Below, one piece after another: positions 3,913 to 20,103 of a stretch of 20,103 bases of DNA (position 1 is its first letter; each line of letters opens with the position of its first letter). The stretch is from Clostridia bacterium (GTDB taxonomy: Bacteria > Bacillota > Clostridia > Christensenellales > Aristaeellaceae): the NCBI GenBank assembly GCA_030526225.1, contig JAUNDF010000022.1, forward strand, positions 9,273 to 29,375. Reading direction: 5' to 3'. Below the pieces are notes generated by a model. That model worked only from the letters and a program-made list of their open reading frames with translations, was not told the origin of the DNA and made no database searches. The position numbers and the translations under genes were made by a program.

Positions 3913-3934
3913 GGAATCTCTCCTTTCAAAAGAA

Positions 3935-3980
3935 GGAGAGCCAGACTTGCGATTTCATTGTATCACAAATCTGACTCTCC
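3935..3980 (-). terminator. Long xis-int intercistronic hairpin with U-tract (attenuator/terminator candidate)
   Basis: On the minus strand, GGAGAGUCAGAUUUG pairs with CAAGUCUGGCUCUCC (15 bp including 2 G-U pairs, 16-nt loop), followed by UUCUUUUG. The 3' arm CUCUCC can alternatively pair with the int RBS GGAGAG (plus 3918-3923). Confidence 0.55.
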
Positions 3981-4031
3981 GTATAGCTATGTCATGGGAA
4001 AACGGCAGTTTTGCCATGATGGTTTTACAAA

Positions 4032-4268
4032 TCAGACAGCGGTGGCCTGATCCAGGTACCGCTCGAACTTTTCGCGCTTAATCAATGCCCGGTTGCCGTT
4101 CATCACATAGAAATCCTCATGCGGATGCTGGTCAATGAGCATGCGCAGTTTTCCTTCGCCGATGTGGTAGTACCGTGCTGCTTCCTCGATGGTCAGCGTA
4201 TACCGGCGCCATACGGGGATGTCATAATACTTCATTTCGTTTTCGTTGTTCTTGATATTTGCCATCAA
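4032..4268 (-). CDS. xis: Excisionase (Tn916 Xis-like HTH protein)
   Basis: The 78-aa product contains [30 protein letters not shown]...[19 protein letters not shown]. This closely parallels Tn916 Xis ([29 protein letters not shown]...IMNGNRIQIKRKQFEKI). It lies directly upstream of int. RBS is GGAGGTG. Confidence 0.9.
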   Translation of the reverse strand: [78 protein letters not shown]

Positions 4269-4308
4269 TATTCACCTCCAGAGATTAGAGCAGAGAGAGG
4301 CCGGTGCG

Positions 4309-4491
4309 GTGTCTGACACACTGACACACCGGCACACACGGTTTGAAAACTTTTTTCTTTCTGCTCCTATGTTTTTACTATTTCAAACTCTTTATATTTT
4401 AGTGTGTCAAGTGTGTCAAAAGCCGGAAACCCTTCTCTCATAAGGGTTTGACCGACACACTGCCTGACACACCCGCTGACACACTGTGTCA
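4309..4491. repeat. Iteron field: at least 8 copies of TGACACAC / GTGTGTCA in both orientations around an AT-rich core
   Basis: Forward copies lie at 4314-4321, 4322-4329, 4465-4472 and 4477-4484. Degenerate forward copies lie at 4331-4339 and 4453-4460. Reverse copies lie at 4402-4409 and 4411-4418. Terminal palindromes are GTGTCTGACAC (4309-4319) and TGACACACTGTGTCA (4477-4491). An 8-bp hairpin AAACCCTT/AAGGGTTT lies at 4427-4449. Confidence 0.85.
4391..4419 (-). promoter_or_regulatory. Candidate xis-int promoter embedded in the iterons
   Basis: On the minus strand: TTGACA (4414-4419, part of an iteron), a 17-nt spacer, then TATAAA (4391-4396). Three iterons then lie in the roughly 115-nt leader before xis. 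Confidence 0.5.
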
Positions 4492-4508
4492 AAAGGGAAT
4501 GAAATTGA

Positions 4509-4727
4509 TTAAGTTATGGCCTTGAACCCTTCATCTATACGGGTTTCTCGGAGGCCGAAGACGCTGCGCGGCAGCGCCCTGATACAATCATCGGCACCAG
4601 CGTGCCGTTCTTTCATAAAATATTCAATTGTCAGTGAATTGGTTTGCCGTTCGTACTGTCTGTGCTTCCCTCCCTTGGCTTCAAAGACTATGGGTGGGAC
4701 GGGCGACCCACCCATGATTTGCATCAT
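4509..4727 (-). CDS. Hypothetical small protein (72 aa), start overlaps the relaxase stop
   Basis: The ATG at 4725-4727 overlaps the relaxase TGA (4724-4726) as ATGA, which suggests translational coupling. I recognise no motif. Stop is TAA. Confidence 0.3.
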   Translation of the reverse strand: MMQIMGGSPVPPIVFEAKGGKHRQYERQTNSLTIEYFMKERHAGADDCIRALPRSVFGLRETRIDEGFKAIT

Positions 4728-5962
4728 CGTTCATATGCATGCCGTTTGCCGGTGTGCAGCTTCGGCTTCAGTTTTTCAACCACCGCAGGGCGAACAGCCT
4801 CGGTAATCTTGAACTTGGTATCGTCTTTGCGGATGGGAGACATCAGGCGAATCCGCACATCTTCGGCCATGGAGAGCAAGGCGCTGAACAAATCTTCCTT
4901 TGTTTTGCCAAGCCATTGCAGAATCGTTCCCCTGACGGTAGGCGGGGCATCACTGCCGGCAGCATAGATGGCGTTCTCGAACCGAAGGTCGATTTGACGG
5001 GCAGTCACTTCATGCACGATCTTGCTGACATCCTCAACGGCCTTGTCGTAGCACTCCGAAGTGACCTCATCCAGCAGAGTGTCAACATCCTCCAGCCGCA
5101 GGAGCTTTGCATCCAGCTCGGCTTCTTTCTCAGCCAGGGCAGCGTCCTTGGCTTCGATTTCAGCCTTTTGTGCTTCAATCATTGCCTTCTGCTTTTCGAT
5201 GATGTAATCGTTCTTCTCCAGATACTCCCGACCGCCGTAGATGGCCTCGCGCTCGACTTCCACCCCGTGGGCTTGACAGATGTCAAGGAGCAGCTCCCGG
5301 CAGATGTTGTCGAAGGTCTTCTTCCGATGATTGTCCCGGCCCGGCTTCTGATTGGGATACGGCAAGGGAATCCCCAGCTGCTCCAGCGCCTTCTCCTGCT
5401 TCGGCTCCACCTCGCCGTAGCGGTTGGTGATGTCGAAAACCTGCCTTGCATGGATATGCGGTGAGGTTTCGTCCAAATGCAGTGCCCAGTCCAGTACATG
5501 GACATGGCTGCCATATTTCTGTTCCAGCGTGTCGAAGAACTCGGTCACGATGGCTGTCAGCACCTCCGGCGGAGGACAATCGCCCTCCTTGCCGATTTGG
5601 TACACGGTCTCCTCGGGGCAGAATCGCTTGTCCTTCAGCAAATCGTCCACCGTGCGGTTGCGCTTCATGTGGCCGGATTTCTTGTTGCGCTGATGCTGTC
5701 CGGCGATGTAATCACCATAGCGGCGTTCATACTCATCGTGTTCGTGCTGATTGAAGGTGGGATACAGGCCGCTCATCTGCTCCTCATGGGTGCGCAGACC
5801 GTTCCGGCAATCCCAGTAGAGGTTGTGCTGAGTTCGGGCTTGGTCGATGTTCTCGGCGTTGGCTACATCGAAGTTGCGGTCGTTGTGCTTGGGGTTGTAA
5901 ACGCCGTGCTTTCCGGCTCGACCGTTGTGCCGGGAAACACGCTTCTTTTCAGGCATGGACAT
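4724..5962 (-). CDS. MobV-family relaxase (Mob_Pre / plasmid recombination enzyme type)
   Basis: It carries the signature HLDETSPHIHA (HxDExxPHxH metal-binding motif of MobV relaxases) and a coiled-coil-like C-terminal half (EKQKAMIEAQKAEIEAKDAALAEKEAELDAKLL). I chose the start at 5960-5962 (MSMPEKK) because a perfect AAAGGAGG lies upstream. The longer ORF to 6034 is rejected. Confidence 0.9.
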   Translation of the reverse strand: MSMPEKKRVSRHNGRAGKHGVYNPKHNDRNFDVANAENIDQARTQHNLYWDCRNGLRTHEEQMSGLYPTFNQHEHDEYERRYGDYIAGQHQRNKKSGHMKRNRTVDDLLKDKRFCPEETVYQIGKEGDCPPPEVLTAIVTEFFDTLEQKYGSHVHVLDWALHLDETSPHIHARQVFDITNRYGEVEPKQEKALEQLGIPLPYPNQKPGRDNHRKKTFDNICRELLLDICQAHGVEVEREAIYGGREYLEKNDYIIEKQKAMIEAQKAEIEAKDAALAEKEAELDAKLLRLEDVDTLLDEVTSECYDKAVEDVSKIVHEVTARQIDLRFENAIYAAGSDAPPTVRGTILQWLGKTKEDLFSALLSMAEDVRIRLMSPIRKDDTKFKITEAVRPAVVEKLKPKLHTGKRHAYER

Positions 5963-6240
5963 GCCTCCTTTCTTTTTGGTTGGTAGCCTCCCCGCAGGGA
6001 GCCTGTGTTTTTCGGCAGGCAATACCCAGTACAAAGTGTCGAATCCCTCCGGGCCACTTCGCTTTCAACACTTCACTGGGCCAAAGGGCTGCGGCCCTCT
6101 GGACTTCCGGGGAATACAACAGGGCCACGCCCTTCGGTACGACCCTGTTGATGCGGTGCTCCTTTGGTGCAAATTGATGCCATCTCGCCGACCGTCTCGC
6201 ACCATCGGAGCCGGATTTGGTGCGGATTCGCACCGGCCGG

Positions 6241-6582
6241 TCAGCTGCCCATCATGTCCAGCAGCGTGTCGATGTCCTCGTCATCCGGCGCATCATCTGC
6301 GACGGGCTCGGACGGTTTTGCCTGCCTCATTGCCTGCATCAGCGTTGCGAGTGCGGAGGAGGACAATTCCTCCCGGACAATGGCTCGGATGGCATCCTTC
6401 TGATGCTCATCAAAGCAGGGGGCTTCCCGCTGATGACCGTAGTAGCCATTGACCGCATGAACGATGGCCTCGGTCAGTTTGATATGCTGCTCATCCCGCG
6501 CCTGATACAGAAGAGTCAGCGCTGCCTGATGCTCAGGCTTGTCTGCATACAGCCGAAGGGTTGTGCGAAAAATCTCCTTCAC
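6241..6582 (-). CDS. ParR-like partition adaptor candidate (ribbon-helix-helix-like N-terminus, acidic C-terminal tail)
   Basis: The 113-aa ORF has a GTG start overlapping the parM stop (GTGA). The N-terminus FRTTLRLYADKPEHQAAL looks like a strand-helix (RHH) element. The C-terminus DDAPDDEDIDTLLDMM is acidic. The position downstream of parM matches parMR organisation. The function is inferred from context only. Confidence 0.45.
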   Translation of the reverse strand: MKEIFRTTLRLYADKPEHQAALTLLYQARDEQHIKLTEAIVHAVNGYYGHQREAPCFDEHQKDAIRAIVREELSSSALATLMQAMRQAKPSEPVADDAPDDEDIDTLLDMMGS

Positions 6583-7505
6583 TGCGCCTTCGCCTCACGC
6601 TTCAGCCGCCGTTCTGCAAGATACTCATAGCCCTTGGCAGAGGCGTGAATGTCGCTGATGATGGTCACCCGATTGGCATCATACTGCCCGAAATTGCGAA
6701 TCAGACACCCGCCACCGCCCACAATCCACAGGCGCATGGTCTTGGGATCGTATTCGTGCTCGCGGAGCTTGCGCATGATTTCTGCCACATAGGCCGCGGC
6801 AGCATCACGAATCACCCGCACATACTCCGGGTCGATATCCGCGGTGCCCTCGCGCATCACCTGCTCAATGGCCACATCGGGCACCGTGCGGCCGCACAGA
6901 CGGGTCAGGGCTTCACGAGCCCGCAGCACGCACTGATGAGTGCCGTACTTCTCCGTGTAGCACTGGTCCGGCACGGGCTTGCGGTCGTTGATGCTCATGA
7001 CAATCATGGTGCCGTTGCCGATGTCGCAGAGCATGTTGGCTCCGGTGAACTTCTTCAGCTCGGGGATGACGGCGGAGTAGCCCTGGGCGTACACATCAAC
7101 GCCCACAATATCGATATGGTAGTCGATGCCCCGCCAGACGAAGTCCACATGGCGGTTTTGCCACAGATACGCCCGAAAGGCTTCCCGCTGATTGTCCACC
7201 CAGGTCAGGGGCAGGCCCACCGCCAGATGCACCGCCGCCGTGGTCATGCGGTTGTGCCACAGCTCCTGCCCGATGCCGGCCAGGGTCAGGATGTAGTGGT
7301 CCAGATTGCTCACCTTGTCCAGGGTGAATTCCCGGTGGCCTGCGCCGATGACATAGTACTTGCCATCGTAAATGAGCAGGTCGTGGGCATGGGCGGGTTC
7401 TGCGTCATAGCAGACCACGCTGGCCGGGAAGATGCCGTTGGCCGTCTTGATGTTGCCATAGCCGTTGTCCAGGCCGATGATGTGGATGTTGTTGAATGTT
7501 TTCAT
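6579..7505 (-). CDS. parM: ParM/StbA-family actin-like segregation ATPase
   Basis: The 308-aa product has the actin-fold phosphate-1 motif IGLDNGYGNIK near the N-terminus, then CDIGNGT and WIVGGGG motifs, as in ParM/StbA. RBS GAGG lies 8 nt upstream. Confidence 0.85.
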   Translation of the reverse strand: MKTFNNIHIIGLDNGYGNIKTANGIFPASVVCYDAEPAHAHDLLIYDGKYYVIGAGHREFTLDKVSNLDHYILTLAGIGQELWHNRMTTAAVHLAVGLPLTWVDNQREAFRAYLWQNRHVDFVWRGIDYHIDIVGVDVYAQGYSAVIPELKKFTGANMLCDIGNGTMIVMSINDRKPVPDQCYTEKYGTHQCVLRAREALTRLCGRTVPDVAIEQVMREGTADIDPEYVRVIRDAAAAYVAEIMRKLREHEYDPKTMRLWIVGGGGCLIRNFGQYDANRVTIISDIHASAKGYEYLAERRLKREAKAQ

Positions 7506-7550
7506 ATGGTTACCTCATTCTTTCTCCTGCGTTTGCAGGGTAAAATAATA

Positions 7551-7574
7551 GGCAGACAGCAATTGCCATCTGCC
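7551..7574. promoter_or_regulatory. Palindrome upstream of parM (candidate parC/operator)
   Basis: GGCAGAcagCAATTGccaTCTGCC has outer 6-bp arms and a central CAATTG that are self-complementary. It lies about 45 nt upstream of the parM start. Confidence 0.35.
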
Positions 7575-7635
7575 ATAGGGAAAAAACGGGAATCACAGGT
7601 GCACAATCAAGGGCACCACCTCCTTTCAAAAGGGC

Positions 7636-7668
7636 AAACAAAAACGCCAACGGATGATTCCGCAGGCG
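7636..7668 (-). terminator. Terminator-like hairpin in the parM leader (copy A of a duplicated 29-nt module)
   Basis: On the minus strand, CGCCTGCGGA-ATCA-TCCGTTGGCG is followed by TTTTTGTTTG. It lies about 25 nt downstream of the candidate promoter at 7701-7729 and is nearly identical to the hairpin at 8463-8486. Confidence 0.5.
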
Positions 7669-7700
7669 CTGCATGGTTTTTATCCACTTTTACATAATAC

Positions 7701-7729
7701 AGTATATCATGTCAAGAGCGTGCCATCAA
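7701..7729 (-). promoter_or_regulatory. Candidate promoter of the parM-parR operon
   Basis: On the minus strand: TTGATG (7724-7729), a 17-nt spacer, then TATACT (7701-7706). The -10 lies inside the palindrome ATACTGTAT. Confidence 0.4.
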
Positions 7730-7824
7730 CGTAATGATTCGTCAGGGAGTGTCGGCTGCTGTCAGTCGTTTGTCCGGCGTTGTCATCAGCTACGAGGACA
7801 GCTGGCCTGCGGTCTTATCAGCCG

Positions 7825-7868
7825 AAAAAAGCATAAGAAAAAGGAGCCTGATTTCGTCAGACTCCTTT
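7825..7868 (-). terminator. Rho-independent terminator of the sigma-like regulator gene
   Basis: On the minus strand, AAAGGAGUCUGA pairs with UCAGGCUCCUUU (12 bp with one G-U pair, loop cgaaa), followed by UUCUUAUGCUUUUUU. It lies about 40 nt after the stop at 7909. Confidence 0.7.
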
Positions 7869-7908
7869 ACCCATCCTCTGCATCATACAGTATAGCACAA
7901 GTTTTCTG

Positions 7909-8370
7909 TCAATTCATGTCACCGGCTGTCGCTTCCTGTCTGATTCTGTCACCAATTTCAACCTCCAGCAGCCGGTTCAGTTCTGCAAGTGCTCTGTCCT
8001 TCAGGGTGTAGACAAACTGCCGGGCGATGAATTCCTCCCGGGCGATGTCGGTGATGGTGCGCCCTTCCAGATAATGCTTCCGCAGAATGGCGGCGCCGTG
8101 GTTCGTGTTCAGCCTGCCCAGCATATCATCAATCTTGTTCAGAATCCGCGTCCGCTCGTTTTCCAGTCGATTGGCCTCGTCGGATGCTTCTACATAGCTG
8201 AGAATGGCTGTTTCTTGAACAGACACATCCAAAGTCCTCTGGACACCGCAGCGTTTGATGGATGCGGCAATCCTCTCCGCAGTCTCTCTGCAGCGGTCTT
8301 CCTTCATCCGCGCAGTGAGGAGCTTCTTGTTAATCACAACGCCTTCCGCCAGAAAATCCAATGCCAGCAT
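7909..8370 (-). CDS. Sigma-70 region-4-like HTH regulator (DUF1492/ArpU-like, analogous to regulators on Tn916-type elements and phages)
   Basis: The C-terminal AILRKHYLEGRTITDIAREEFIARQFVYTLKDRALAEL resembles a sigma region 4 HTH. I chose the start at 8368-8370 (MLALDFL), which has a G-rich RBS and a promoter just upstream. The longer ORF to 8559 would run through the promoter and terminator. Confidence 0.7.
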   Translation of the reverse strand: MLALDFLAEGVVINKKLLTARMKEDRCRETAERIAASIKRCGVQRTLDVSVQETAILSYVEASDEANRLENERTRILNKIDDMLGRLNTNHGAAILRKHYLEGRTITDIAREEFIARQFVYTLKDRALAELNRLLEVEIGDRIRQEATAGDMN

Positions 8371-8403
8371 CAACAACACCCCCCGAATAGCGTTCTTAAA
8401 AAG

Positions 8404-8450
8404 AGAACAAATGTTCTTGTTTATTATAGTGCTATTTGGGGATGGGGCAA
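8404..8450 (-). promoter_or_regulatory. Promoter with a Cheo-box-like palindromic operator
   Basis: On the minus strand: TTGCCC (8445-8450), a 16-nt spacer, then a perfect TATAAT (8423-8428). Five nt further downstream is the perfect 14-bp palindrome AGAACATTTGTTCT (8404-8417), which matches GAAC-N4-GTTC. Confidence 0.55.
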
Positions 8451-8452
8451 GG

Positions 8453-8486
8453 GAAAGAAAAACGCCGGCGGATGATTCCGCTGGCG
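8453..8486 (-). terminator. Rho-independent terminator of the AEC transporter gene (copy B of the duplicated hairpin module)
   Basis: On the minus strand, CGCCAGCGGA-ATCA-TCCGCCGGCG is followed by TTTTTCTTT. It lies 44 nt after the stop at 8531. Confidence 0.7.
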
Positions 8487-8530
8487 TGGGTGTGTATTTG
8501 CCGTCCTGAATCTGTTTGCCGGGCTGATTT

Positions 8531-9484
8531 TCACACTGCCAGCAATCCCATCTGCGCAAGGGAGAAAATCCAAACGAAGATGGTCAATACGCTGACCACC
8601 GTGCTGATAAACACAAACTGTCCCGCAAGCTCTCCGTCGCCGCCCATGTTTTTGGCCATGGGATAGGAGCCGGACGCAACAGGGGTGCCGAACACGACCA
8701 GAACCAGAAACAGTTCAACACCGCGGAGGCCAAGAATATATCCGATGGTTACAAGAATCAGCGGCAATATCAGCAGCTTGATGCTCAGTGTGGGCACAAT
8801 GTATTTCAGGTTTTTGCCGATTGCATTGAATTGCAGTGTCCCGCCCAGTGCAAACAAAGCAAGAGGCGAAGACATGTTTGCAAATGCTTTTATAGGTGTT
8901 TCAATGCTTTTAGGCAAATGGATGCCAAGCGCAAAGAAAACAATGCCGAAGAAGCAGCCCTGCAGCATCGGGTTTTTCATCAGCTTGATCAGCAGTGACT
9001 TGAATTCGATTTTTTGACTGCTGCCGTTGAACATTTCAAGAATCAGAACAGAGGTGATGTTGTAGATGGTAATTACCACCATAATCAGCATACCTGCCAC
9101 CGCTGCCTTTTCACTGCCGTAGATGGTGGTTGTCAGCGGGATGCCGAACAGCACAAAGTTCGACCTGAAGATTGCCTGGATAATCACACCGCGCCGGGGA
9201 TTTTCTTTTACAAGCCGGGGTACAATCAACAGCAGAATCCCCTCAACAATCAGGATGGCTGCTGCACAGAAAACGAGCAGCGTTGTTGAAGGCAGATTAT
9301 CAGGTGTCGCGCTATAAACGCTGTTGAAGGTCATAAACGGGAACATGATGGTAAACACAAGCTTCGTCAGCCGGTCCAGAAACTGCTTGTCCACAACACC
9401 GGCAGCGGCAGTGCCATAGCCCAAAGCCAGATAGCACAGGAATGGGATTACCGCGTTAACCGCTGTCAGAAAGCTCTCGAACAT
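8531..9484 (-). CDS. AEC (auxin efflux carrier) family transporter
   Basis: The 317-aa polytopic membrane protein has a typical AEC N-terminus (FLTAVNAVIPFLCYLALGY) and about 10 hydrophobic segments. RBS is AAGGAGGAG. Stop is TGA. Confidence 0.85.
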   Translation of the reverse strand: MFESFLTAVNAVIPFLCYLALGYGTAAAGVVDKQFLDRLTKLVFTIMFPFMTFNSVYSATPDNLPSTTLLVFCAAAILIVEGILLLIVPRLVKENPRRGVIIQAIFRSNFVLFGIPLTTTIYGSEKAAVAGMLIMVVITIYNITSVLILEMFNGSSQKIEFKSLLIKLMKNPMLQGCFFGIVFFALGIHLPKSIETPIKAFANMSSPLALFALGGTLQFNAIGKNLKYIVPTLSIKLLILPLILVTIGYILGLRGVELFLVLVVFGTPVASGSYPMAKNMGGDGELAGQFVFISTVVSVLTIFVWIFSLAQMGLLAV

Positions 9485-9499
9485 AAGCGCTCCTCCTTA

Positions 9500-9542
9500 C
9501 AGAAAAGAAGGCAGGCACATGCCGGAAAAGCATGCACCTGCC
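9500..9542 (-). terminator. Hairpin with T-tract between the RraA-like gene and the AEC gene (partial terminator/attenuator candidate)
   Basis: GGCAGG..CATGC (9510-9522) pairs with GCATG..CCTGCC (9530-9542) with a 2x2 internal mismatch. On the minus strand it is followed by TTCTTTTCT, directly before the AEC RBS. Confidence 0.45.
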
Positions 9543-9559
9543 CGGAAGAATCCTGCAGA

Positions 9560-10255
9560 TTATTTCATCATATCCAGCACCCACTGGGGAGCGAGCTGCG
9601 GCAGTTCTCCGCCTTCTGCTTTTGCCTTGCGATAGGCGGCAATGGTTTCATTGCGCTTGTTCTCGTAGGCAAGCTTCTTCTCGGCCTCGGCCAGAACGGT
9701 CTCAATATGTTCGACGGGAATTACGCAAACACCATCGGAATCGCCAACCACCAAATCACCGGGATTGACCTTTACGCCGGCGCACATGATAGGCGTGTTG
9801 ATGTTGCCTTCGTTCTTCTTGATGGGGCCCCGGGGCATAAAGCCCTTGCTGTATACGGGGAAGTTCAGGTCAATGTTGCCGTCACGGTCGCGGGTGCAGC
9901 CATCGATGACCATGCCCTCAAAGCCAACAGCCTGACAGGCGCCCATAATCAGATCGCCGAAGTAAGCGCGGCCTTCATAGCCCTTGCCATCGATGACCAT
10001 GACATAGCCTTCAGCCTGAAAACTGTAGCTGGCCACATGGATGGGGAAATTGTCGCCATTGTCCGTCTCAACTGTCAAGGCGGTACCGACAACGGTCATG
10101 CCGCGTTCAACAGGCATAACAGCCATGTCCATGCAGCCGTCGTTGAGAATGTCCAGCTTGGCAGCCTTCACACCGTCCAGCAGCAGCGGTACATTCAGTT
10201 TCTTGGCCCGTTCAATAATATCCGCACTCAGCAGCGGAGCACATGCATTAATCAT
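9560..10255 (-). CDS. RraA / 4-hydroxy-4-methyl-2-oxoglutarate aldolase-oxaloacetate decarboxylase family protein
   Basis: GDLIMGACQAVGFEGMVIDGCTRD matches the RraA/HMG-aldolase core (DG-x-x-RD). I chose the start at 10253-10255 (MINACAPLL), which overlaps the permease stop as ATGA. The upstream extension to 10396 is Arg/Cys-rich and is rejected. Confidence 0.8.
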   Translation of the reverse strand: MINACAPLLSADIIERAKKLNVPLLLDGVKAAKLDILNDGCMDMAVMPVERGMTVVGTALTVETDNGDNFPIHVASYSFQAEGYVMVIDGKGYEGRAYFGDLIMGACQAVGFEGMVIDGCTRDRDGNIDLNFPVYSKGFMPRGPIKKNEGNINTPIMCAGVKVNPGDLVVGDSDGVCVIPVEHIETVLAEAEKKLAYENKRNETIAAYRKAKAEGGELPQLAPQWVLDMMK

Positions 10256-12177
10256 TTCGTCAGAACCTCTTTCTTTACTGTTTTTGCAGCCAAAACGAGA
10301 ATGCCGCCGACAATCAGCAGACCTGCAGCGTTCAGAAGGAGGGGCTCCTTCACCAGCAGCATCACACCGCCGGCAACCAGTGCTGCCCGCTCCCATATCT
10401 TCAGGTCACGCTTGAACCAGCCGAACAGACCAAAGGCCATACCGGCACAGCCAATGGCAGCGGTTACCAGACAGAAGATAACCATGGGGCTGAAGCCGAA
10501 GGTGTTGGCAGCCACATCATAGCAAAGCAGTTCAGTGTTATACAGGAATACGAAAGGAATTACAAAACCGGAGATTGCCAGCTTGATCGCCTGGAAACCG
10601 GTTTTCCACATGTCGCCGCCCGATATGCCGATGGCGGCAAAAACCGCAAGTGCAACAGGCGGAGTAATGGCAGCCACCACACCGTAGTACAGCACAAACA
10701 TATGCGCGGAAATGGTTGCCACGCCAAGGCTGATCATGGCAGGTGCTACCAGCACGCTCAGCACGATGTAGCAGGCGGAGGTAGGCAGGCCCATGCCCAG
10801 AATGATGCACACAAATGCAGTCAGCAAGCCCATGAAGAAGATGTTGCCGCCGGAAATGGTGGTAATCAGGCCGGAGATGCTCAGGCCCAGACCGGTCTTA
10901 TTGATGGCGCCAACAATCACGCCGGCAATCATGCAGGCGATGGACACGCTCATGATGCTCTTTGCAGAGGAAATGCACAGATTCATCAGATTCTTGGGCG
11001 TGAACTTCTTCGGGTCCTTCATCAGGCCGATGACAACGCACAGGCCGATGGTAATCAGTGCAGCGCGCTGGGTGGACAGGCCAATGACCATCAACACAAT
11101 CAGGACCACGATGGGGCTGAAGTAATACCAGCCTTCCTTGAAAATCTGACCGACTGTTTTTGCATTGGGGTCAGGCTCCTGAACCGGGATATGGTTCTTA
11201 TGAGCATAAGAGAAAATGGAAACAGAGAGCGTAAGGTAATACAGCACTGCGGGCAGGAGTGCAGCCAGACAGATGGTGGTGTAGGGCAGATTGGTTGCCT
11301 GTGCCATCAGGAATGCAACGGCACCCATAACCGGGGGCATAATCTGACCGCCATTGGATGCAACGGCTTCTACCGCACCGGCTGTGTCTTTGTCAAAACC
11401 GGTTTTCTTCATCAGCGGTATGGTAAAGGTACCGGTCGTTACTACGTTAGCAGCACCGGAGCCGTTTACCATGCCCATCAGCATGCTGGAATACACAGCA
11501 GCCTGAGCAGGACCGCCGCATACACGGCCAAAGGCTGCGAAGGAGATATCCACAAAGAATTCGCCGGCACCGATGAAATTGAGCATGGAGCCGAAAATGA
11601 CGAACAAGAATATGAAATTGGCCGCCGTACTCAAAGCACTGCCAAACAAGCCTTCGTCACCGACGACCAGATACTTGGCAAAGTTGTTCATCTTAACCGG
11701 CGCAGTCCGGAAGGGCTCCGGCAGGTACTTGCCGACCAGTGTATAGATGAAGAAAACAAGTGCCAGAGTAGGAAGCACGGGACCCAGTGCCCTGTAGGCA
11801 ATAATCACTGCAACGGCAATGAAAATCTGGCAAATCAGGTACTGATAATCCGAAACCTTTGCCGAATTGGTATTGCGCATTTTGTATGCTTCCAATGCGA
11901 CCAGGATGGTTAATACAATCAGAACAACATCCACGACACGGGAGAGGGTCGACTTGGCCTTCACATGCTTTCCCTTGAATTTCAGGGGCTTTACAAGCAG
12001 GAAGAATGCAATAATCAGGGAGCCATGCACAATCGCCTGGGTGGTGTTGTTCAGCGTCAGCACAGGCGAGGCTGCCAGCAGATGGAACAGGCAAAGCACT
12101 ACTGCTACCACAACGGAAAGCACGTAGGCGGCCTTCTCCGTACCGCTGCCATGGATTCTGGCTTCGGTTTCGCTCAT
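10252..12177 (-). CDS. TRAP transporter fused permease (TAXI-type, DctQM-like)
   Basis: The 641-aa highly hydrophobic protein is typical in length and architecture of the fused permeases that partner TAXI binding proteins. RBS GGAGGAA lies 7 nt upstream. Confidence 0.9.
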   Translation of the reverse strand: MSETEARIHGSGTEKAAYVLSVVVAVVLCLFHLLAASPVLTLNNTTQAIVHGSLIIAFFLLVKPLKFKGKHVKAKSTLSRVVDVVLIVLTILVALEAYKMRNTNSAKVSDYQYLICQIFIAVAVIIAYRALGPVLPTLALVFFIYTLVGKYLPEPFRTAPVKMNNFAKYLVVGDEGLFGSALSTAANFIFLFVIFGSMLNFIGAGEFFVDISFAAFGRVCGGPAQAAVYSSMLMGMVNGSGAANVVTTGTFTIPLMKKTGFDKDTAGAVEAVASNGGQIMPPVMGAVAFLMAQATNLPYTTICLAALLPAVLYYLTLSVSIFSYAHKNHIPVQEPDPNAKTVGQIFKEGWYYFSPIVVLIVLMVIGLSTQRAALITIGLCVVIGLMKDPKKFTPKNLMNLCISSAKSIMSVSIACMIAGVIVGAINKTGLGLSISGLITTISGGNIFFMGLLTAFVCIILGMGLPTSACYIVLSVLVAPAMISLGVATISAHMFVLYYGVVAAITPPVALAVFAAIGISGGDMWKTGFQAIKLAISGFVIPFVFLYNTELLCYDVAANTFGFSPMVIFCLVTAAIGCAGMAFGLFGWFKRDLKIWERAALVAGGVMLLVKEPLLLNAAGLLIVGGILVLAAKTVKKEVLTK

Positions 12178-12261
12178 TCTCTGTTCCTCCGTTTTTAATG
12201 ATGGGAGACCCGATTGCTCGAGTCCCCCGTTTCAGCATCAGATTCAGTTATTTGAATGCAA

Positions 12262-13230
12262 TCAATCAGTAATCAGACCGATTTCACGATAGTAACGCTC
12301 TGCACCGGGGTTGAAGGGAATGATGGGCGTTGCGATAGTCTCGGTGGAAATCTGGCGGGTAGCGGCGTTGGTATCAATGTAGGTGGGCAGGGTTTCCATC
12401 ATCAGCTTGCAGAAAGCGTAGATCTGATCGTCATCCACATTGGAGGAGCAGAACAGGCAGGTCAGATAGGACAGGGTCATCACAGAATCTTCGTTTGCCT
12501 GATTCTCATAGGTGCCGGCAGGAATCTCGCTCTTGATGGCAAAGGGATACTCGGCAATGATCGCATCGCAAACTTCTTCGCTGACGGGCAGCATACGGAA
12601 GCTGGTGGTAGCGGCATACTGCTGAATGCCGGCAATGGGATAGCCGCCGGTCTGGAAGGCAGCGTCAATGTCGCCGTTGGCCAGTGCTTCTGCAGCCTCG
12701 GCATAGTTCATGTAGAAGGGAGTGATGTCATCCAGGGTGATGCCATAGGCAGCCAGGATTGCTTCGTCGATGAACAGATAGCTGGTGCCCTGAGAGCCTA
12801 CGCAAACCTTCTTGCCCTTCAGCTCGGAGATGTCATTGATGCCGCTGTTGGCATTAACGAACACATGCAGCTGGGACTGATACAGCGCGGCAACTTCCTG
12901 AATGTCCTGAGCGCCGTCGTTTGCATAGGTCATGGTGCCGGTGTATGCGCCATACAGGGCGTCACTGTTGCCCATGCCAATCTGAATGTCGCCGGACTGT
13001 ACCAGCTGTACGTTTTCACCGGAGCCGGCAGTTGCCTGCACCCAAACCTTCAGCTTGCCTGCTTCAGAAACAGCATTGCCGATGGCGGCGCCAACATAGT
13101 AGAAAGTACCGGTGGAGGAAGCAGTGCCGAGCACCAGGTCGCCGGAAACGCTGTAAGCATCAACCTCGGCAAAGGCAACGGAGGACAGCAGCATGGCAAT
13201 AGCCAGCAGGGCAGCAAAGAACTTTTTCAT
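12262..13230 (-). CDS. TAXI-family TRAP transporter solute-binding protein
   Basis: It has a signal peptide (MKKFFAALLAIAMLLSSVAFA) followed by LGTASSTGTFYYVGAAIGNAV...SGENVQLVQSGDIQIG, as in TAXI (immunogenic-protein type) receptors. RBS is AAAGGAGAA. Confidence 0.9.
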   Translation of the reverse strand: MKKFFAALLAIAMLLSSVAFAEVDAYSVSGDLVLGTASSTGTFYYVGAAIGNAVSEAGKLKVWVQATAGSGENVQLVQSGDIQIGMGNSDALYGAYTGTMTYANDGAQDIQEVAALYQSQLHVFVNANSGINDISELKGKKVCVGSQGTSYLFIDEAILAAYGITLDDITPFYMNYAEAAEALANGDIDAAFQTGGYPIAGIQQYAATTSFRMLPVSEEVCDAIIAEYPFAIKSEIPAGTYENQANEDSVMTLSYLTCLFCSSNVDDDQIYAFCKLMMETLPTYIDTNAATRQISTETIATPIIPFNPGAERYYREIGLITD

Positions 13231-13299
13231 GACAAAATTCTCCTTTTCTATTTTTTCACCTGAAACACACGTTCAGGGTGAACTCCGTTTTGTAAGATT

Positions 13300-14040
13300 T
13301 TATACCAGCTCTTCGCCGGCAACCGGGAAGAAGTTGGAGAAGCACTCACCGTACTTGTAGGTCTGATTACCGGAAATGCGGCGCAGGTGATTGCCGCGCA
13401 GGAAGGCGCGCTCGGTGTAGTATTCAATCAGATGATTCTGAGCCTTGAAGCACTTCATGGCTGCCACCTTCTGTTCATACACCTCGGAAATATCAACCAG
13501 TTCACCGGGCACGAATTTGCTCAGCTCTGTCTGATGGGGCTCAAAGCCAAACAGGCGCATCTGCTTGGTCGTCTTGGTGCCTTCAATGCGAACACCGTTG
13601 GAGTTGGACTGAATGCTGCACTCAAACACAAAGCGGCTTACGGCGTTGTGGTCGGGGTTCAGCACATCCTCGCCCATCTTATCGTGGGTCAGGATGATGT
13701 CGGGGCGTACTTCGCGAATCTTGCGAATCAGGCGCTCGCGAACATTCTCATCCAGCGCGGGAGCCATGGGATAATCGGGCAGATCCCAGAACTCAATGTT
13801 CTTGATGCCCAGGATTTCGGCTGCTGCAGTTGTTTCTGCCAGACGTTCTGCCTTAACGCTTTCGGCGGTTGCGCCTTCCTTCTTCCACAGGTCGTTGCTT
13901 TCGCCGCGAATGCCAAAGCTGAGCACCACCACATGCACATCAGCGCCGTGTTTAATGTACTTGGCAATTACACCGCCTGCACGCCACACATAGTCTGCAG
14001 CATGTGCGCTGACCACCAGTACCTTCTTGCCTTCAATCAT
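13300..14040 (-). CDS. PIG-L/LmbE-family deacetylase
   Basis: The N-terminus VLVVSAHAADYVWRAGG is a variant of the AHPDD motif. DIILTHD and NPDHNAV motifs follow. The 246-aa length fits the family. RBS is GGAGGAA. Confidence 0.8.
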   Translation of the reverse strand: MIEGKKVLVVSAHAADYVWRAGGVIAKYIKHGADVHVVVLSFGIRGESNDLWKKEGATAESVKAERLAETTAAAEILGIKNIEFWDLPDYPMAPALDENVRERLIRKIREVRPDIILTHDKMGEDVLNPDHNAVSRFVFECSIQSNSNGVRIEGTKTTKQMRLFGFEPHQTELSKFVPGELVDISEVYEQKVAAMKCFKAQNHLIEYYTERAFLRGNHLRRISGNQTYKYGECFSNFFPVAGEELV

Positions 14041-14063
14041 CGCTCATTCCTCCAAATCTTATA

Positions 14064-14960
14064 TCATTCCAGACCAAGAAGCTTCTTGGGATTATAAACG
14101 GTTGTCTTGCGGACTTCCTCAACGGAGTAGCCTGCTTCGTACAGCTTTTCCGCATAAGCCAGCATGCCTTCATCGGGGTAGATGGCGGTCTTCTGGCCAA
14201 GGTCGGTTGCCAGAACAATATGGTCGGGGCCGATTGCCTTAATCTGTTCCATGGTGGTTTCGATGGGGCACTTGCCGGTGGCCCAGGTGGTGTAGCAGTG
14301 CTCGATGTAGGCGCCCATATCCAGGAACTTCTTCTGTTCCTCAACCGTGTAGAAGGTGGTGGGGAAATCAGCATGCGTTACCAGGATGTTCTTTACGCCC
14401 ATTTTGCTTGCCTCGCCGCACAGGGCAAAGGCTTCTTCATGACTCATATGGCCGGTTGCAAGAATCATATCGTACTTGGCAATCACCTTCAGCACCGTGT
14501 AGGCTTCTTCGGTCAGGCCGCCTTTTTCATCCAGTACGGTAACGGTAGGAGCGGCATTGCCGGCAGCGGCCATCTCCTGTACGATGGTTGCCCAGTAGGG
14601 CTGCTTCTTGTATTTGCCGGAGAGAACATAGGCGCGCTCGTGCGCAGAATCGCAGGTGGGGAACCAAACCAGCTTGGCACCGCTTCTTGCGGCCATTTCC
14701 ACAGCGGAAGGATTAATGCCGCCCACGCTGGAATTCAGGGTGATGGCACCGATTGCATTGCAATCAGGGAACATCTTGTTAATCAGCTCTGCACGTTCGC
14801 TGGTGCAGAAGTAATGGCTTTTGATAATGTAGCCGGCCATGCCGCTCTGCTTAATCCGCTCGGCCATTTCAATGTCATCCATCTTGCGGGGAAGAACATC
14901 GGGTGCAGAATGCACATGCATATCATAACCGCCGAGAATCAGTTCCTTCATGTCTGCCAT
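14064..14960 (-). CDS. Metal-dependent hydrolase, amidohydrolase/TIM-barrel-like (DUF6282-like), substrate unknown
   Basis: It has GYDMHVHSAPD near the N-terminus, an internal ATGHMS, and LVTHADFP and ATDLGQ motifs suggesting metal ligands. I chose the start at 14958-14960 (MADMKEL), which has the GAGAGGAG RBS. The longer ORF to 15197 runs through the AT-rich promoter region. Confidence 0.65.
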   Translation of the reverse strand: MADMKELILGGYDMHVHSAPDVLPRKMDDIEMAERIKQSGMAGYIIKSHYFCTSERAELINKMFPDCNAIGAITLNSSVGGINPSAVEMAARSGAKLVWFPTCDSAHERAYVLSGKYKKQPYWATIVQEMAAAGNAAPTVTVLDEKGGLTEEAYTVLKVIAKYDMILATGHMSHEEAFALCGEASKMGVKNILVTHADFPTTFYTVEEQKKFLDMGAYIEHCYTTWATGKCPIETTMEQIKAIGPDHIVLATDLGQKTAIYPDEGMLAYAEKLYEAGYSVEEVRKTTVYNPKKLLGLE

Positions 14961-15035
14961 GGTTTTACTCCTCTCACATTGCAAAAATAAAACACTTTCT
15001 GGACAAATTTTACCTTTGCGCGTTGTTGTGACTAA

Positions 15036-15064
15036 AAGATAGCATAAACAAAAACGGTTGTCAA
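15036..15064 (-). promoter_or_regulatory. Candidate promoter of the hydrolase-to-transporter operon
   Basis: On the minus strand: TTGACA (15059-15064), a 17-nt spacer, then TATCTT (15036-15041), within an AT-rich divergent intergenic region. Confidence 0.5.
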
Positions 15065-15131
15065 TATCGTTTTGCATAAATTTTTTACAAAATTGTTCAA
15101 CAATCTCGTTTAATTTGATTCGAGGACAATG

Positions 15132-15160
15132 TTGACTTTTTTTCTTACTAATGATATCAT
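15132..15160 (+). promoter_or_regulatory. Candidate promoter of the GntR-family regulator gene
   Basis: TTGACT (15132-15137), a 17-nt spacer, then TATCAT (15155-15160). The leader of about 105 nt contains a 7-bp hairpin GAGACAG/CTGTCTC (15226-15245). Confidence 0.55.
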
Positions 15161-15273
15161 AACCACAAGCAGAGAAGACCAAGGAAGCTTTCAGCAATAA
15201 TTGAATTTTCCTTTCTTTTTTCTGAGAGACAGGACTTGCTGTCTCCTTTGTTCAGTGAAAGGAGATTATCCAT

Positions 15274-15918
15274 ATGGCCGCTACACAAACAACACAGGTC
15301 TATCAGGACTTGAAACATAAAATACTGCATAGTGGTTATGCGCCTTCCGAAAGTCTTCCCGAAGCCGATTTGGCAACAACATATTCCGTCAGCCGCAATA
15401 CCATCAAAAAAGCACTGCTTATGCTGGAAAACGACGGCCTGGTCGTTATCGAACCAAACAAGGGCGCCAAGGTTCGCTCTTATTCCAAAACAGAAGTGCT
15501 CGAGTATCTGGAAATCCGCGAAGTGCTTGAGGAACGGCTGATGAAGCTTGCCGTGCCCGCCATGACAGCAGATGATTTCGAAAAGCTGGATAGAATTACA
15601 GCATAGATGCTGCAGGCAAAAACAGAAGGCCGCCTGTCAGATTATTCATCCGGCAACCGGGCCTTCCATTCTGTTTTCTATGATGTATGCCCGAACCGTT
15701 CCCTGGCGCAGCTGATTGTCAACCTGAAGAACCAGATGAGAAAATACAACAGCAAAACCGTTCTGATTCCCGGCAGAACCGACAATGGCTACCAGGAACA
15801 TCTGGCCATTCTTGAGGCAGCCCGTTCCGGCGACGGCGAAACAGCAGCCAAAGCCATCGTCAAGCACATTCAGGGCGTACGGCAAATATTTGAGGATAAT
15901 TTCGATTTGCTGTTCTGA
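15274..15918 (+). CDS. GntR/FadR-family transcriptional regulator interrupted by one in-frame TAG at codon 111 (15604-15606)
   Basis: The N-terminal winged HTH (LPEADLATTYSVSRNTIKKALLMLENDGLVVIEPNKGAKV) and the C-terminal FCD-type domain (NRAFHSVFYDVCPN..., EHLAILEAARSGD) are in the same frame. They are joined by ...DRITA-TAG-MLQAKTEG. The combined 214 codons is the normal family size. RBS is AAAGGAGA. Stop is TGA. Confidence 0.85.
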
Positions 15919-16095: not shown

Positions 16096-17625
16096 TCAAT
16101 CACTTTTCCTCTCCCTGTATTCTCCCGGGGTCATGCCATACTGCTTTTTGAAAAGGCGGTTGAAATAGAAGGGATCGTCAAACTCGACCAGAGAGGAGAT
16201 GTCCTTCGCAGAGGCACTGCCCTTGCGCAGCAGGGAGGCTGCTTTTTCCAGACGGATACGCGTGAGAAACTGCAGAATGCTCTCGCCGGTTTCCCGCTTG
16301 AACAGCCGGCACAGGTAGCTTTTGTCCAGATTAATCATGCCGGCGAGCATTTCCAGGGTGATGCGGTCTGCGTAGTGCTGCTGCAGGTACAGAATCACCG
16401 TTCTGACATCGGCGTTTTTTCCATCATCAGCCGTGTCCGGCAGCTGCAGCAGAGACGGCAGCAGGCTGTGCAGCAGGGAGCACAGCTGCTGAGAAGAGGT
16501 GCACGCAAACACCTGCACATGGCTGGCAAAGGTAATGCTTTCGGAGACATTTGGCTGATTGATAATCAGGCGCTGGAGCAGCAGAAAAATGTAATGCTTC
16601 AATGATTGGGGAGCGGTTCTGCTTTCCCTGCAGCGCTGAATCAGGCTTTGCACCCAGATATCCGCGCTTTCCGGATTTTTTGCGAAGGCATCTGCCAGCT
16701 GAACAGCGGCTGTTTCGGGTGGAGGGGAAGGGACCTCCTGACTGAACGGACTGCCGTCGGCAACAGTACAGCACTGCGCCGATTGTGCTGATTGATAGAA
16801 GAAGTCCTGTGCATCCTGTCTGCAAATGCGCAGCTGCTCAAGCAGACCCTCCATGGAAGAAAACGGCTGTGAAACAAGAATGCCGGCGCTGCAGTTCAGG
16901 TATGTCTTCAGCTGACGCACCATCTGGATGCCCCGCCGCTGCAGCATGGAAGCATCCTGCGCGAATGATACAGGGACCAGGCAGAGATGCTATTGCTCAT
17001 TCAGGCACAGCACATCCGCCTGCTCATTCAGGTTTGCCAGCAATATGTTGCGGATGCTCTTGCGTGCCGCGGCGCGCTGCTCGGCGTTGATAACCACATT
17101 CATCAGCCGGTAAGGTGTGTGGGGCAGCATGATGGCCGGGTCTTTGCAGTTTTCTTCTGTCAGTGTGTAGCCCAGCAGAAAGTCTCTCAGCAGCGTTCTT
17201 CTGTAATCATCGGTCATTGATGTGCCGATGTGCCGGGCATCTGTGCAGCTTGTCAGGTTGGCAGAGAGCTGCTCAAGGGCTTCACGCATGGAATCCTCTT
17301 CCATGTCCGTCTTCAGCAGATAATCCCTCGCCCCTAACTGCATGGCCTGACGGACCAGGGAAAAATCGGAATAATTGCTGAGGACAAGGATGGCCCCCTG
17401 AAACCCGCCTTTTTTCAGATGCCGGATCAGCTCAAGGCCGTCCATTTGGGGCATTTTCATATCCGTGATGACGATGTCCACCGGGGTGCTTTCCAGAAAA
17501 GTCAGCGCCTCTTCACCGTTGGCAACCATGCCGGCAATGGCCCATGGCGTGTCAGCCCAGGGCAGCAGATTGCGGAAGGTCATCCGGATGACAGGCTCAT
17601 CATCAACCAAAAGCAGCTTGTACAT
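16096..17625 (-). CDS. YesN-like response regulator (REC + AraC-type HTH) interrupted by one in-frame TAG at codon 212 (16990-16992)
   Basis: The start MYKLLLVDDEP at 17623-17625 overlaps the kinase stop (TAATG). The REC domain includes DIVITDMKMPQMDG. After ...CLNEQ-TAG-HLCLVPVSF the same frame continues to the AraC HTH (ITLEMLAGMINLDKSYLCRLFKRETG...FDDPFYFNRLFKKQYGMTPGEYR). The 509 codons is typical for the family. Confidence 0.9.
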
Positions 17626-19337
17626 TATTCCACCTCCTTTTGCAGCGGAATGATGATTTCGCAAACGGTTCCCTTGTCCGGCGCTCCGGAAAGAGATACA
17701 CCGTAGGAGGACCCGTAATGCAGCCGGATGCGCTCGGCCACATTGGAAAGCCCGATGCCGGAGGACTTGCCGCCTGCATCCTTTTCTTCACGAAGGCCGG
17801 TGCCGTCATCAGCTACTGTCAGATGAAGACAGGGGCCCTCACAGCGCGCACTGACCGTGATGGTCATGATGCGCCCGTTATCGGGCATGCCGTGAATGAT
17901 GGCGTTTTCCACCAGAGGCTGCAGAATAAAGCGGGGCACGGGCACAGCATTGGCGCTGTCATCCACATGGAATATCAAATCAAAGCCGTCGCCGTACCGC
18001 AGCTTCTGGATGGAGCCGTAGCAGGCCAGGTCCTGCATCTATTCAGACAGCGGATGCATATCCTTTTTGCCCAGCAGGGTGCTTTTCAGCAGTGTGCACA
18101 GGGATGAAATGCCATCGTGAAGTGCAGGCACACCATTGAGGTCGGCAATCCATTTGAAGGTGTTCAGCGTGTTGAACAAAAAATGCGGGTTAATCTGATA
18201 CTGCAGAGCGGAAAGCTCCAGCTCCCGCTTGCGTTCCTCGTTTTTCTTCTGCTGCTCTGCCATGTCGCAAAGCCGGGCAATCAGGTTATCCAAGGTTCGG
18301 GCAAGCACGCCCAGCTCATCGGGGCTGTGGTCGCTCAGGGGCTGGGACAGGGCAGAAAGGTTTCTGCCGCAGTGCTTCATCATTTGCTGGATGGGCTGCA
18401 TAATGGAGGCGTAAACAAGCAGCATGGCAAGAAAACTGATGACAAACAGACCGGCCGCCACCAGTATCAGTGTCTTCAGCACACCCTGCATCCTGCCGTA
18501 GATTTCCGAATAGGGGATGGCGACAAAAAAGCGAAAGCCGTACACATCGCTGACACAGCTGGTCAAAAGATATTGGCGGCTGTTCAGGGAGAAGGTGCGC
18601 TCGGAGCCGTCAGTCAGCTGCGCTGCTTCGCCGGCGAGGGTTTCGTTTTCGGCCGCATCATCCGGAAAAAACAGTGCGCCGTCGGCAGAAGAAAAGAAGG
18701 TGATGGCGCCGCTGCCGAAGGAAATATCCGCCAGAATTTCGCCGCGCAGCAGCTGGGGGCTGAGGCAGATCATGATGTAGCCCTTTTCCGACAGCGTGGG
18801 GGCAAAGCGGAACAGCTTGCGGCCCAGAATCAGGCCGCCGTTGGGATTTACGCGCAGATAGCCGCCGGCCGTGCCTGTGTTGAATTGCTCCAGCACATCC
18901 CGGGGCAGAATATCAAAGGTGCTTTCGTAGCCGGCTGATCCAATCAGCGAGCCGTGTGCGTCATATACCTGCACATCGCGCAGATGCTTCTATGCGCCAA
19001 AGGTTTTCAGACCCTTCCGGATGAACGTGCCCAAGGGCCCTGCGTATGTCTGCCCGGCATCATAGGCATCAAACAGCGCATTCAGTTCGTCTGACAGGCT
19101 GAGTGCATTCAGGTATGTGCCGTAGGGAACAAGGGCTGTCTACAGGTTCCGAGTCATCAGCCGCAGGGATTGGAACGTATGCTCCTGCACCTTTTCGCGG
19201 ATGGTTGTTGTGTAAACATTGCTGGCATACAGGCCGAATACAAGCACCGGAATCAGCGAGCAGGCAAGGATGGCAAACAACAGCCTTGTCTGAATACGAA
19301 ACCGGCGAAGGATACGGATGAGGATATTCCGTTTCAT
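17625..19337 (-). CDS. YesM-like sensor histidine kinase (2 TM segments, HAMP, His_kinase PF06580-type, HATPase) interrupted by three in-frame TAGs (19140-19142, 18990-18992, 18039-18041)
   Basis: A single frame runs from ATG 19335-19337 to TAA 17625-17627, 570 codons. It contains TM1 LLFAILACSLIPVLVFGLYA and TM2 LILVAAGLFVISFLAMLLVYA. The H-box region is LQYQINPHFLFNTLN, the N-box is LQPLVENAIIHG, and the G-boxes are DDGTGL and GIGLSNV. The ORF track splits it into 65-aa, 311-aa and 137-aa pieces plus an unlisted segment, and every break is a TAG. Confidence 0.9.
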
Positions 19338-19551: not shown

Positions 19552-19580
19552 TTTTGATTTCCCGGCAAAGTGTCTATAAT
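19552..19580 (+). promoter_or_regulatory. Candidate promoter of the ABC solute-binding protein gene
   Basis: A perfect TATAAT (19575-19580) follows a weak -35, either TTTTGA at 19552-19557 (17-nt spacer) or TTGATT at 19554-19559. The weak -35 would fit activator dependence. Confidence 0.5.
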
Positions 19581-19626
19581 GCAATTATCAAATAAGTCGC
19601 GTGATTCGCGCAACGGAGGTACACAA

Positions 19627-20103
19627 ATGAAAAAGATGCTGCGAATGGTTCTCTGCATGATGCTGTGCATCAGCATGCTGTCCGGTGCGGCAGTGGCAGA
19701 CGAAACACAGGAACTGAACATTGCCGTATTCGAGGGCGGCTACGGCGCAGAGCAATGGAATGCCGTTGTGGCATCCTTTGAGGCGGCCAACCCCGGCGTA
19801 AAGGTCAACATGCAGATCAGCCCCACCATCGGCGATACCGTCAGCGCACAGATGGCAGCCGGCAATGTTCCTGACTTTCTGGTGCTCAACGGCACTGCAT
19901 ACGGCGTGATTCTGAGCATGATTGCCGAACAGGGTCTGATGGACATCACCGATGTATTTGAAGGCCCCTGCTACAACGGCGAAGGCAAGCTGGCCGAGCA
20001 GCTGGGCGACGGCCTGCTGGATTCCAATGTCTGCGCACCCTATGGCGACGGCAAAATCTATCAGGCTCCCCTGTACGCTTCTCCCACCGGCCTGATTTAC
20101 AAC
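19627..20103 (+). CDS. ABC transporter extracellular solute-binding protein (carbohydrate family 1 type), 5' part; continues beyond the window
   Basis: ATG 19627 has GGAGG 7 nt upstream. The signal peptide is MKKMLRMVLCMMLCISMLSGAAVA, followed by ELNIAVFEGGYGAEQWNAVVASFEAANPGVKVN, typical of sugar-binding proteins. The frame stays open to the end of the window (159 codons). It is absent from the ORF track because no stop is reached. Confidence 0.85.
   Translation, partial: MKKMLRMVLCMMLCISMLSGAAVADETQELNIAVFEGGYGAEQWNAVVASFEAANPGVKVNMQISPTIGDTVSAQMAAGNVPDFLVLNGTAYGVILSMIAEQGLMDITDVFEGPCYNGEGKLAEQLGDGLLDSNVCAPYGDGKIYQAPLYASPTGLIYN

Follow-up and report, generated by a model that had tools for sequence, protein, structure and literature searches.

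The 20,103-nucleotide stretch of DNA considered here, called the window throughout, comes from a Clostridia bacterium (contig JAUNDF010000022.1, positions 9,273 to 29,375) and carries a sensor kinase and response regulator pair whose reading frames are interrupted by amber (TAG) codons. A first-pass annotation made from the letters alone had placed three TAGs in one frame of the kinase gene, at codons 66, 116, and 433 of 570, and translation confirmed this placement. The context that it quoted for the third of these, DMHPLSE-TAG-MQDLACYGSIQKLRYG, is exact. The TAG reported in the partner regulator at 16990-16992 is also present, as codon 212 of 509 when the gene is started at 17625 and not at 17628, and the TAATG overlap of the regulator start with the kinase stop is as described. 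Two in-frame TAGs were missed in that annotation, one at 2473-2475 in a phosphatase gene and one at 15604-15606 in a GntR/FCD regulator gene. The genes and codons under study, together with the residue found at each codon in related proteins, are the following.

17625-19337, minus strand: YesM-type sensor histidine kinase, 570 codons followed by TAA, with the three TAGs below
19140-19142, minus strand: TAG, kinase codon 66; the 10 closest orthologs all have glutamate (Glu; GAG/GAA), and the column varies across the wider family
18990-18992, minus strand: TAG, kinase codon 116; Gly (GGN) in the 14 closest orthologs, Ser, Gly, or Pro in the wider family
18039-18041, minus strand: TAG, kinase codon 433; Glu in 120/120 homologs, with ATG directly after
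16096-17625, minus strand: YesN-type response regulator with REC and AraC-type HTH domains, 509 codons, overlapping the kinase stop through TAATG
16990-16992, minus strand: TAG, regulator codon 212; Glu, Glu, Glu, Glu, and Lys in five orthologs (GAA/GAG/AAA)
2062-2529, minus strand: low-molecular-weight protein-tyrosine phosphatase (LMW-PTP), 155 codons, with TAG at codon 19
2473-2475, minus strand: TAG, phosphatase codon 19; immediately downstream of the C-X5-R P-loop, in the context CHGNICRSPMA-TAG-FVFK
15274-15918, plus strand: GntR/FCD-family transcription regulator, 214 codons, with TAG at codon 111
15604-15606, plus strand: TAG, GntR codon 111; variable column with a Glu plurality (34/131), with ATG directly after
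19558-20103, plus strand: solute-binding protein (SBP) gene, partial and divergent, matching Pfam SBP_bac_1 and SBP_bac_8

Read through their TAGs, these genes encode recognizable proteins. The kinase matches the Pfam families His_kinase (PF06580) at 66.5 bits (cut-off 25.2) and HATPase_c at 37.1 bits (cut-off 26.4), with HAMP at 21.3 bits falling under its cut-off of 25, and the regulator matches Response_reg at 82.4 bits and HTH_18 at 78.6 bits as well as HTH_AraC. The pair belongs to the YesM/YesN group by three signs: the kinase domains score above the Pfam cut-offs, a REC and AraC-HTH regulator lies directly adjacent, and both are syntenic with a sugar-type SBP, the order SBP / kinase / regulator being conserved in five ortholog contigs. 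The closest full-length kinase orthologs share 53-61% identity with the window's protein. A plus-strand translation of 17625-19337 was also tried and rejected, there being no gene on that strand. In the homolog alignment, kinase codon 433 falls within P-L-x-x-E-L-x-x-L-x-x-Y-F-x-I-Q, and the statement in the first-pass annotation that the third TAG occupies an acidic motif position turned out to be right, the column being invariant for Glu. Standard-code gene calling instead begins a 137-amino acid open reading frame (ORF) directly after this codon. The phosphatase matches LMW-PTP structures in the PDB with E-values down to 2.9e-29, and its TAG takes the place of the Glu of CRSPMAE in the solved structures, a column that is 96% Glu among 119 homologs. 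The corresponding NCBI protein, MDO4483736.1, is a product of only 131 amino acids that starts at an internal Met and has no catalytic loop. The GntR/FCD gene has the only TAG on the plus strand; there the codon falls between the HTH and FCD domains in the context LDRITA-TAG-MLQAK, and full-length homologs are about 213 amino acids long.

Across the window, the 19 genes with their 5,910 codons hold six in-frame TAGs, no in-frame TAA or TGA, and no frameshifts. The six are found in four genes, which lie on both strands and in two regions that differ in composition. No further TAG-interrupted ORFs were found in the unassigned intervals of the window, and TAG-extended ORFs elsewhere in it proved spurious, as they lie on the opposite strand of real genes. 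Extension at the left edge through the S51 peptidase (about 350 nucleotides) led to a gene that ends in TGA. The TAGs also stand in a second assembly. A second assembler (Logan, run SRR24915835) reproduced all six; one of its contigs (L087) is identical to the window across 2,394 bases, the phosphatase TAG included, and on another (L088) the kinase, regulator, and GntR gene calls are split exactly at the TAG positions. The regulator is called there as pieces of 211 and 283 amino acids, and the GntR/FCD gene as abutting ORFs of 110 (GntR) and 103 (FCD) amino acids. The Logan contigs are short, at 1.7-6.2 kb, which suggests modest coverage. An origin in methylation motifs or other systematic error was considered and rejected, the six TAGs being without a common nucleotide context.

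The first-pass annotation had proposed an ortholog column analysis for each TAG, and this analysis indicates Glu at all sites except kinase codon 116. A Codetta-style likelihood computed over the six TAG columns gives Glu +7.1 nats and the runner-up, Ser, -3.9, which favors Glu by about 11 nats; Gln lies about 15 nats below Glu. As a control, sets of six columns drawn at random from any sense codon were treated in the same way, and the right amino acid was recovered in 91% of trials. In the genes that carry the TAGs, the mean Glu log-odds is 1.19 for the TAG columns, 1.30 for the GAG columns, and 1.13 for the GAA columns; the TAG columns are indistinguishable from GAG/GAA columns. GAG is converted to TAG by one G-to-T change. 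What a recoded stop codon is expected to look like, namely one stop type in several genes at positions of one conserved amino acid, is found here within 20 kb and with a single Gly site among the columns.

The main rival explanation holds that the TAGs are recent nonsense mutations, fixed or polymorphic, which arose with a G-to-T bias in dispensable regulators, making the host genes young pseudogenes. Kinase and regulator are struck together, as would be expected once a sugar-sensing two-component system has become dispensable, and all six TAGs fall in regulatory or signaling genes with none in the 14 other genes. Kinase codon 116, which is not a Glu column, fits such random hits as well. Briefly persisting in-frame stops are reported to be common in bacterial populations (PMC7918605), and pseudogene stops can imitate recoding in Codetta-type screens (PMC8629427). 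The state of the genes is therefore of direct interest. The first-pass annotation had suggested dN/dS on either side of each TAG, which is uninformative here because about 40% protein divergence saturates synonymous sites, mostly predating any inactivation; at ortholog identities of 53-61%, relative-rate and conserved-column tests were used. The mean distance of the kinase to ten outgroup sequences is 0.608, slightly farther than the 0.568-0.592 of intact orthologs, which amounts to a relative-rate excess of at most 3-7%. Of the 59 kinase columns conserved at 95% or more, 57 are kept, and the TAG itself is one of the two that are not; the count for intact orthologs is 57-59. The earlier claim that the kinase is free of indels and motif erosion is borne out by these counts and by its unbroken frame. 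Neutral divergence of roughly 2-3% would be needed to account for the four stops in the kinase-regulator pair. Bacterial pseudogenes at this divergence are expected to carry several frameshifting indels, and the pair carries zero. The usual marks of a pseudogene (mixed stop types, frameshifts or other indels, and lost conserved residues) are thus not what these genes display.

Mutation models provide a second line of evidence on the same rival. If mutation were uniform, TAG would make up 0.53 of new stops, which gives a p of about 0.02 for six of six, and only 20% of the TAG-creating changes would strike Glu codons. A spectrum of G:C>T:A changes only does account for the Glu bias, and under it TAG makes up 0.31 of new stops, or about 0.0009 when extended to six. 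When G>T changes are confined to Glu codons, with GAG about as frequent as GAA, the probability of six TAG and no TAA is 0.012. These models of mutation alone are a poor fit (joint p about 1e-3 to 1e-5), and something specific to TAG therefore makes TAG tolerable. Recent nonsense mutation would need a strong G-to-T bias, and the absence of TAA and TGA would still go unexplained. In the kinase and regulator, the window lineage has 33 G:C>T:A changes, compared with about 47 expected under a calibrated mutator model (P about 0.02), and 27 changes of the reverse class; this low-power test, its rate being taken from four events, does not show a clear excess of the kind that a G:C>T:A mutator would leave. 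Nor would selection be expected to favor TAG in a standard system, since among the stops of standard bacteria it is UGA that leaks most, not UAG. Taken with the intact state of the genes, these results lead us to regard recent nonsense mutation as unlikely, albeit the most serious of the competing explanations. As a separate observation on the kinase and regulator, window-unique changes at sites where the five orthologs agree are about 56% transversions, compared with about 30% for two of the orthologs, and most of them are at codon positions 1 and 2. This richness in transversions probably reflects the window sequence being the most divergent and not a mutational signature.

The explanation that we favor is that UAG is translated in this organism, most likely as Glu, by a CUA-anticodon tRNA that descends from tRNA-Glu; on the sequence evidence we hold the chances that this is correct to be evenly balanced. 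Reading TAG as Glu would explain most, covering the sole stop type, the Glu columns, a gene hit several times and still intact, both strands, and the two compositional regions. In the proposed course of events, a tRNA with a CUA anticodon would arise from tRNA-Glu and read UAG as Glu. GAG-to-TAG changes would therefore be near-neutral and could persist in functional genes. Bacillota usually have a non-discriminating glutamyl-tRNA synthetase that is tolerant of changes at anticodon position 36, and a Glu-charged CUA tRNA would then be one point mutation away. The scarcity of TAG stops in the lineage would supply the precondition for codon-capture models: in ortholog contigs (those with kinases at 53-61% identity), 44 genes have 28 TAA, 15 TGA, and 1 TAG stops. 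Decoding is probably inefficient or in competition with termination, which would place this reassignment at an ambiguous or early stage, short of a mature code, because all six TAGs are in low-abundance signaling or regulatory genes and none in the 14 others. In this early-stage scenario, TAG would have been purged as a terminator, tRNA-Glu(CUA) would have emerged, and TAG would be re-entering low-expression regulators at former GAG positions. Decoding of TAG as Glu predicts the peptides SPMAEFVFK from the phosphatase and DMHPLSEEMQDLACYGSIQK from the kinase. That this would be the first bacterium in which UAG stands for a standard amino acid, Glu, and that it would do so at an early ambiguous stage, is a narrower proposal that we put forward tentatively and with somewhat less assurance than translation itself. 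The first-pass annotation implies genes that tolerate their TAGs or read through them and are not dead, and this view is likewise favored, in part. It draws on the single stop type, the Glu columns, and the intact genes, to which the two additional genes, the occurrence on both strands, and the second assembler now add; the restriction to regulators fits gene loss as well, and in this respect the view is qualified.

A number of results count against Glu translation of UAG and have to be set beside the evidence above. The prior is low, as a screen of 250,000 genomes found no bacterial reassignment of UAG to a standard amino acid, and our literature search turned up no report of a bacterial UAG-to-Glu or other UAG sense code. 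A tRNA search of the window (ARAGORN, and Rfam at gathering thresholds) found none, and Rfam at those thresholds had no match of any kind in the window. The canonical marks of a reassigned stop codon are a tRNA that matches it, loss of its release factor, and conservation across a clade; prfA, the gene for the release factor that would be concerned, does not lie in the window. Kinase codon 116 is the sole TAG site that does not point to Glu. The concentration of TAG in one class of genes is pronounced: regulatory and signaling genes have 6 TAG to 46 GAG and the 14 other genes, some of which belong to a Tn916-like mobilizable element, have 0 TAG to 120 GAG (Fisher p = 0.0006, for a category defined post hoc). 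A recoded codon should be spread over all gene classes, and this one is not; a mature, efficient code with TAG as Glu does not predict TAGs in regulators only. The skew would be predicted by inefficient or conditional suppression in low-abundance proteins, or by loss of dispensable regulators. The stop codons of the window do not help, for although TAG terminates none of its 18 complete genes (13 use TGA and 5 TAA, a preference for TGA where the relatives have mostly TAA), we rejected this as evidence of recoding because the relatives also avoid TAG. The organism is known from a single sequencing run, SRR24915835, and attempts to find the TAGs elsewhere were negative. The protein collection contains no relative above 61% protein identity, a scan of GTDB species representatives with the kinase returned nothing above 38% identity and no sister genome, and scans of JGI metagenomes in which the two invariant-Glu sites were written as NAG found nothing. 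In sum, the pattern works like a stop-codon reassignment but cannot be classified as one, given its confinement to a single class of genes and given that no related genome sharing it was found.

Three further explanations compete with translation of UAG as Glu. The first supposes that UAG has become a weak terminator, with release factor 1 (RF1) weakened or lost after TAG stops became rare, and that near-cognate Gln, Tyr, Lys, or Trp tRNAs read through it. TAG nonsense mutations would then be only mildly harmful and no dedicated tRNA would be needed. This would explain why TAG is the only in-frame stop and why it is concentrated in low-abundance proteins, and the relatives scarcely use TAG stops (1/44). 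The nucleotide after the TAG is A in four of the six cases (p about 0.055), with ATG following directly in two. An A directly after a stop codon is a suppression-friendly context, and this weakened-termination account would expect such a context. It leaves the Glu columns unexplained, two of which are invariant, and Gln, Tyr, and Lys are each more than 11 nats worse than Glu. The Glu bias would have to come from an additional preference for G>T mutation, and no such preference is evident. We consider read-through of this kind improbable.

Some Bacillota encode pyrrolysine (Pyl), and the second of these explanations is that pyrrolysine machinery reads every TAG as Pyl, in a bacterial counterpart of archaeal code 34. 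A genome-wide TAG-to-Pyl code with rare scattered TAGs does exist in archaea (bioRxiv 10.1101/2024.09.30.615893). The same source describes the Pyl positions of code 34 as unconserved and resembling random mutations at tolerant sites, whereas here two TAGs are at invariant Glu and the six columns are jointly Glu-like. It is unlikely that a bulky lysine derivative could replace invariant Glu without effect. The Pfam-searched genes of the window include neither pyl genes nor methylamine methyltransferases, and a downstream stimulatory RNA structure of the PYLIS or SECIS kind is unsupported, with z-scores of -1.5 to +1.2. A pyrrolysine code is very improbable on these grounds. Artifacts introduced during sequencing, assembly, or binning, such as oxidative G>T damage, motif-linked miscalls, or the effects of low coverage, are about as improbable, for although the sequence is supported by one run only and the Logan contigs are short, assembly error and motif-linked miscalls are unlikely because two assemblies agree at six of six sites and the TAGs have no common motif, and random errors would not be TAG-only, in-frame-only, and Glu-type-only amid 5,900 clean codons.

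Reading of UAG as Glu in a bacterium can be placed against several known systems. UAG as a sense codon has been described in phages (Gln), in archaea and some bacteria (Pyl), and in eukaryotes. UAG and UAA both encode Glu in peritrich ciliates (translation table 30) and in Blastocrithidia (table 31). These eukaryotic codes have the same pairing of codon and amino acid as is proposed here, but they are nuclear and eRF1-based, and in them UAA changed together with UAG. In the window, UAA remains a stop (5 of 18 genes) and is never in frame. In Blastocrithidia UAR is read as Glu, and suppressors derived from tRNA-Glu are the known mechanism in these codes (PMC12153298). According to the papers searched, all known stop-codon reassignments in bacteria are of UGA (PMC8629427; PMC13462651; gTranslate preprint). 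The bacterial changes of UGA to Trp (table 4) and to Gly (table 25) likewise involve a single stop type in intact genes and one conserved amino acid, and in those lineages, as in this one, the codon is little used as a terminator. They differ from the present case in that the codon here is UAG and not UGA, the amino acid would be Glu, and usage is very low, with 6 TAG against 354 GAG/GAA, in regulatory genes only. Phages with recoded TAG (Gln, table 15) insert a standard amino acid via suppressor tRNAs (bioRxiv 10.1101/2021.08.26.457843); the present TAGs, by contrast, are in chromosomal regulators at Glu columns, and no phage genes or tRNAs were found near the TAG-bearing genes. Archaeal code 34 offers a likeness in its rare in-frame TAGs, which are scattered through the ordinary genes of a prokaryote and hardly alter coding density, and it differs in its host, the window being bacterial, with TAGs at conserved Glu and no Pyl machinery. 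Belinky et al. described transient in-frame stops under purifying selection and proposed low-level read-through (2021; PMC7918605). The likeness to their cases lies in stops inside genes that otherwise look selected. Theirs are of all three stop types and mostly single events on the scale of polymorphism, whereas the window has six TAGs in 20 kb, three of them in one gene, with one compatible amino acid.

The remainder of the window consists of genes in which no in-frame stop was found. The minus-strand region 2713-8559 looks like an integrated Tn916-like mobilizable element, with 52 GAG and 0 TAG codons. It has a Tn916-type integrase (Integrase_DNA and Phage_integrase), a ParM/ALP-like protein, a small putative Xis-like ORF at 4032-4268, and a weak match to a Mob_Pre-like relaxase (24.2 bits, under the cut-off). 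A megablast search of PLSDB returned no match to the integrase/Mob element. Another minus-strand cluster, at 8531-15197, adjoins the GntR/FCD regulator; its genes are for transport and catabolism, and it comprises a Mem_trans permease, an RraA-like aldolase, a PIG-L deacetylase, a DUF6282 protein, and a long TRAP permease of the DctM type together with an NMT1_3 (TAXI-type) binding protein. Because the ORFs listed for RraA and DctM share about 145 nucleotides, one of the two starts is probably mis-set. Third-position GC is about 0.8 in the three complete genes farthest to the left, namely the S51 peptidase, an S24/HTH repressor, and the phosphatase (490-2529), and 0.57-0.70 elsewhere.

Whatever the mechanism turns out to be, annotation under the standard code misdescribes these genes, leaving a phosphatase without its catalytic loop and a kinase, a response regulator, and a GntR regulator that are split or dropped. 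Should recent nonsense mutation be the explanation, the window would hold a cluster of young pseudogenes of little interest. Should UAG be translated as Glu, the organism would have a new bacterial genetic code and would show that RF1-dependent termination can be abandoned in nature. It would also provide a natural amber suppressor pair that inserts Glu. As an intermediate stage, it would show the order in which stop-codon depletion, tRNA mutation, and release-factor loss take place, and it would give a view of the codon-capture or ambiguous-intermediate path as it is followed in nature.

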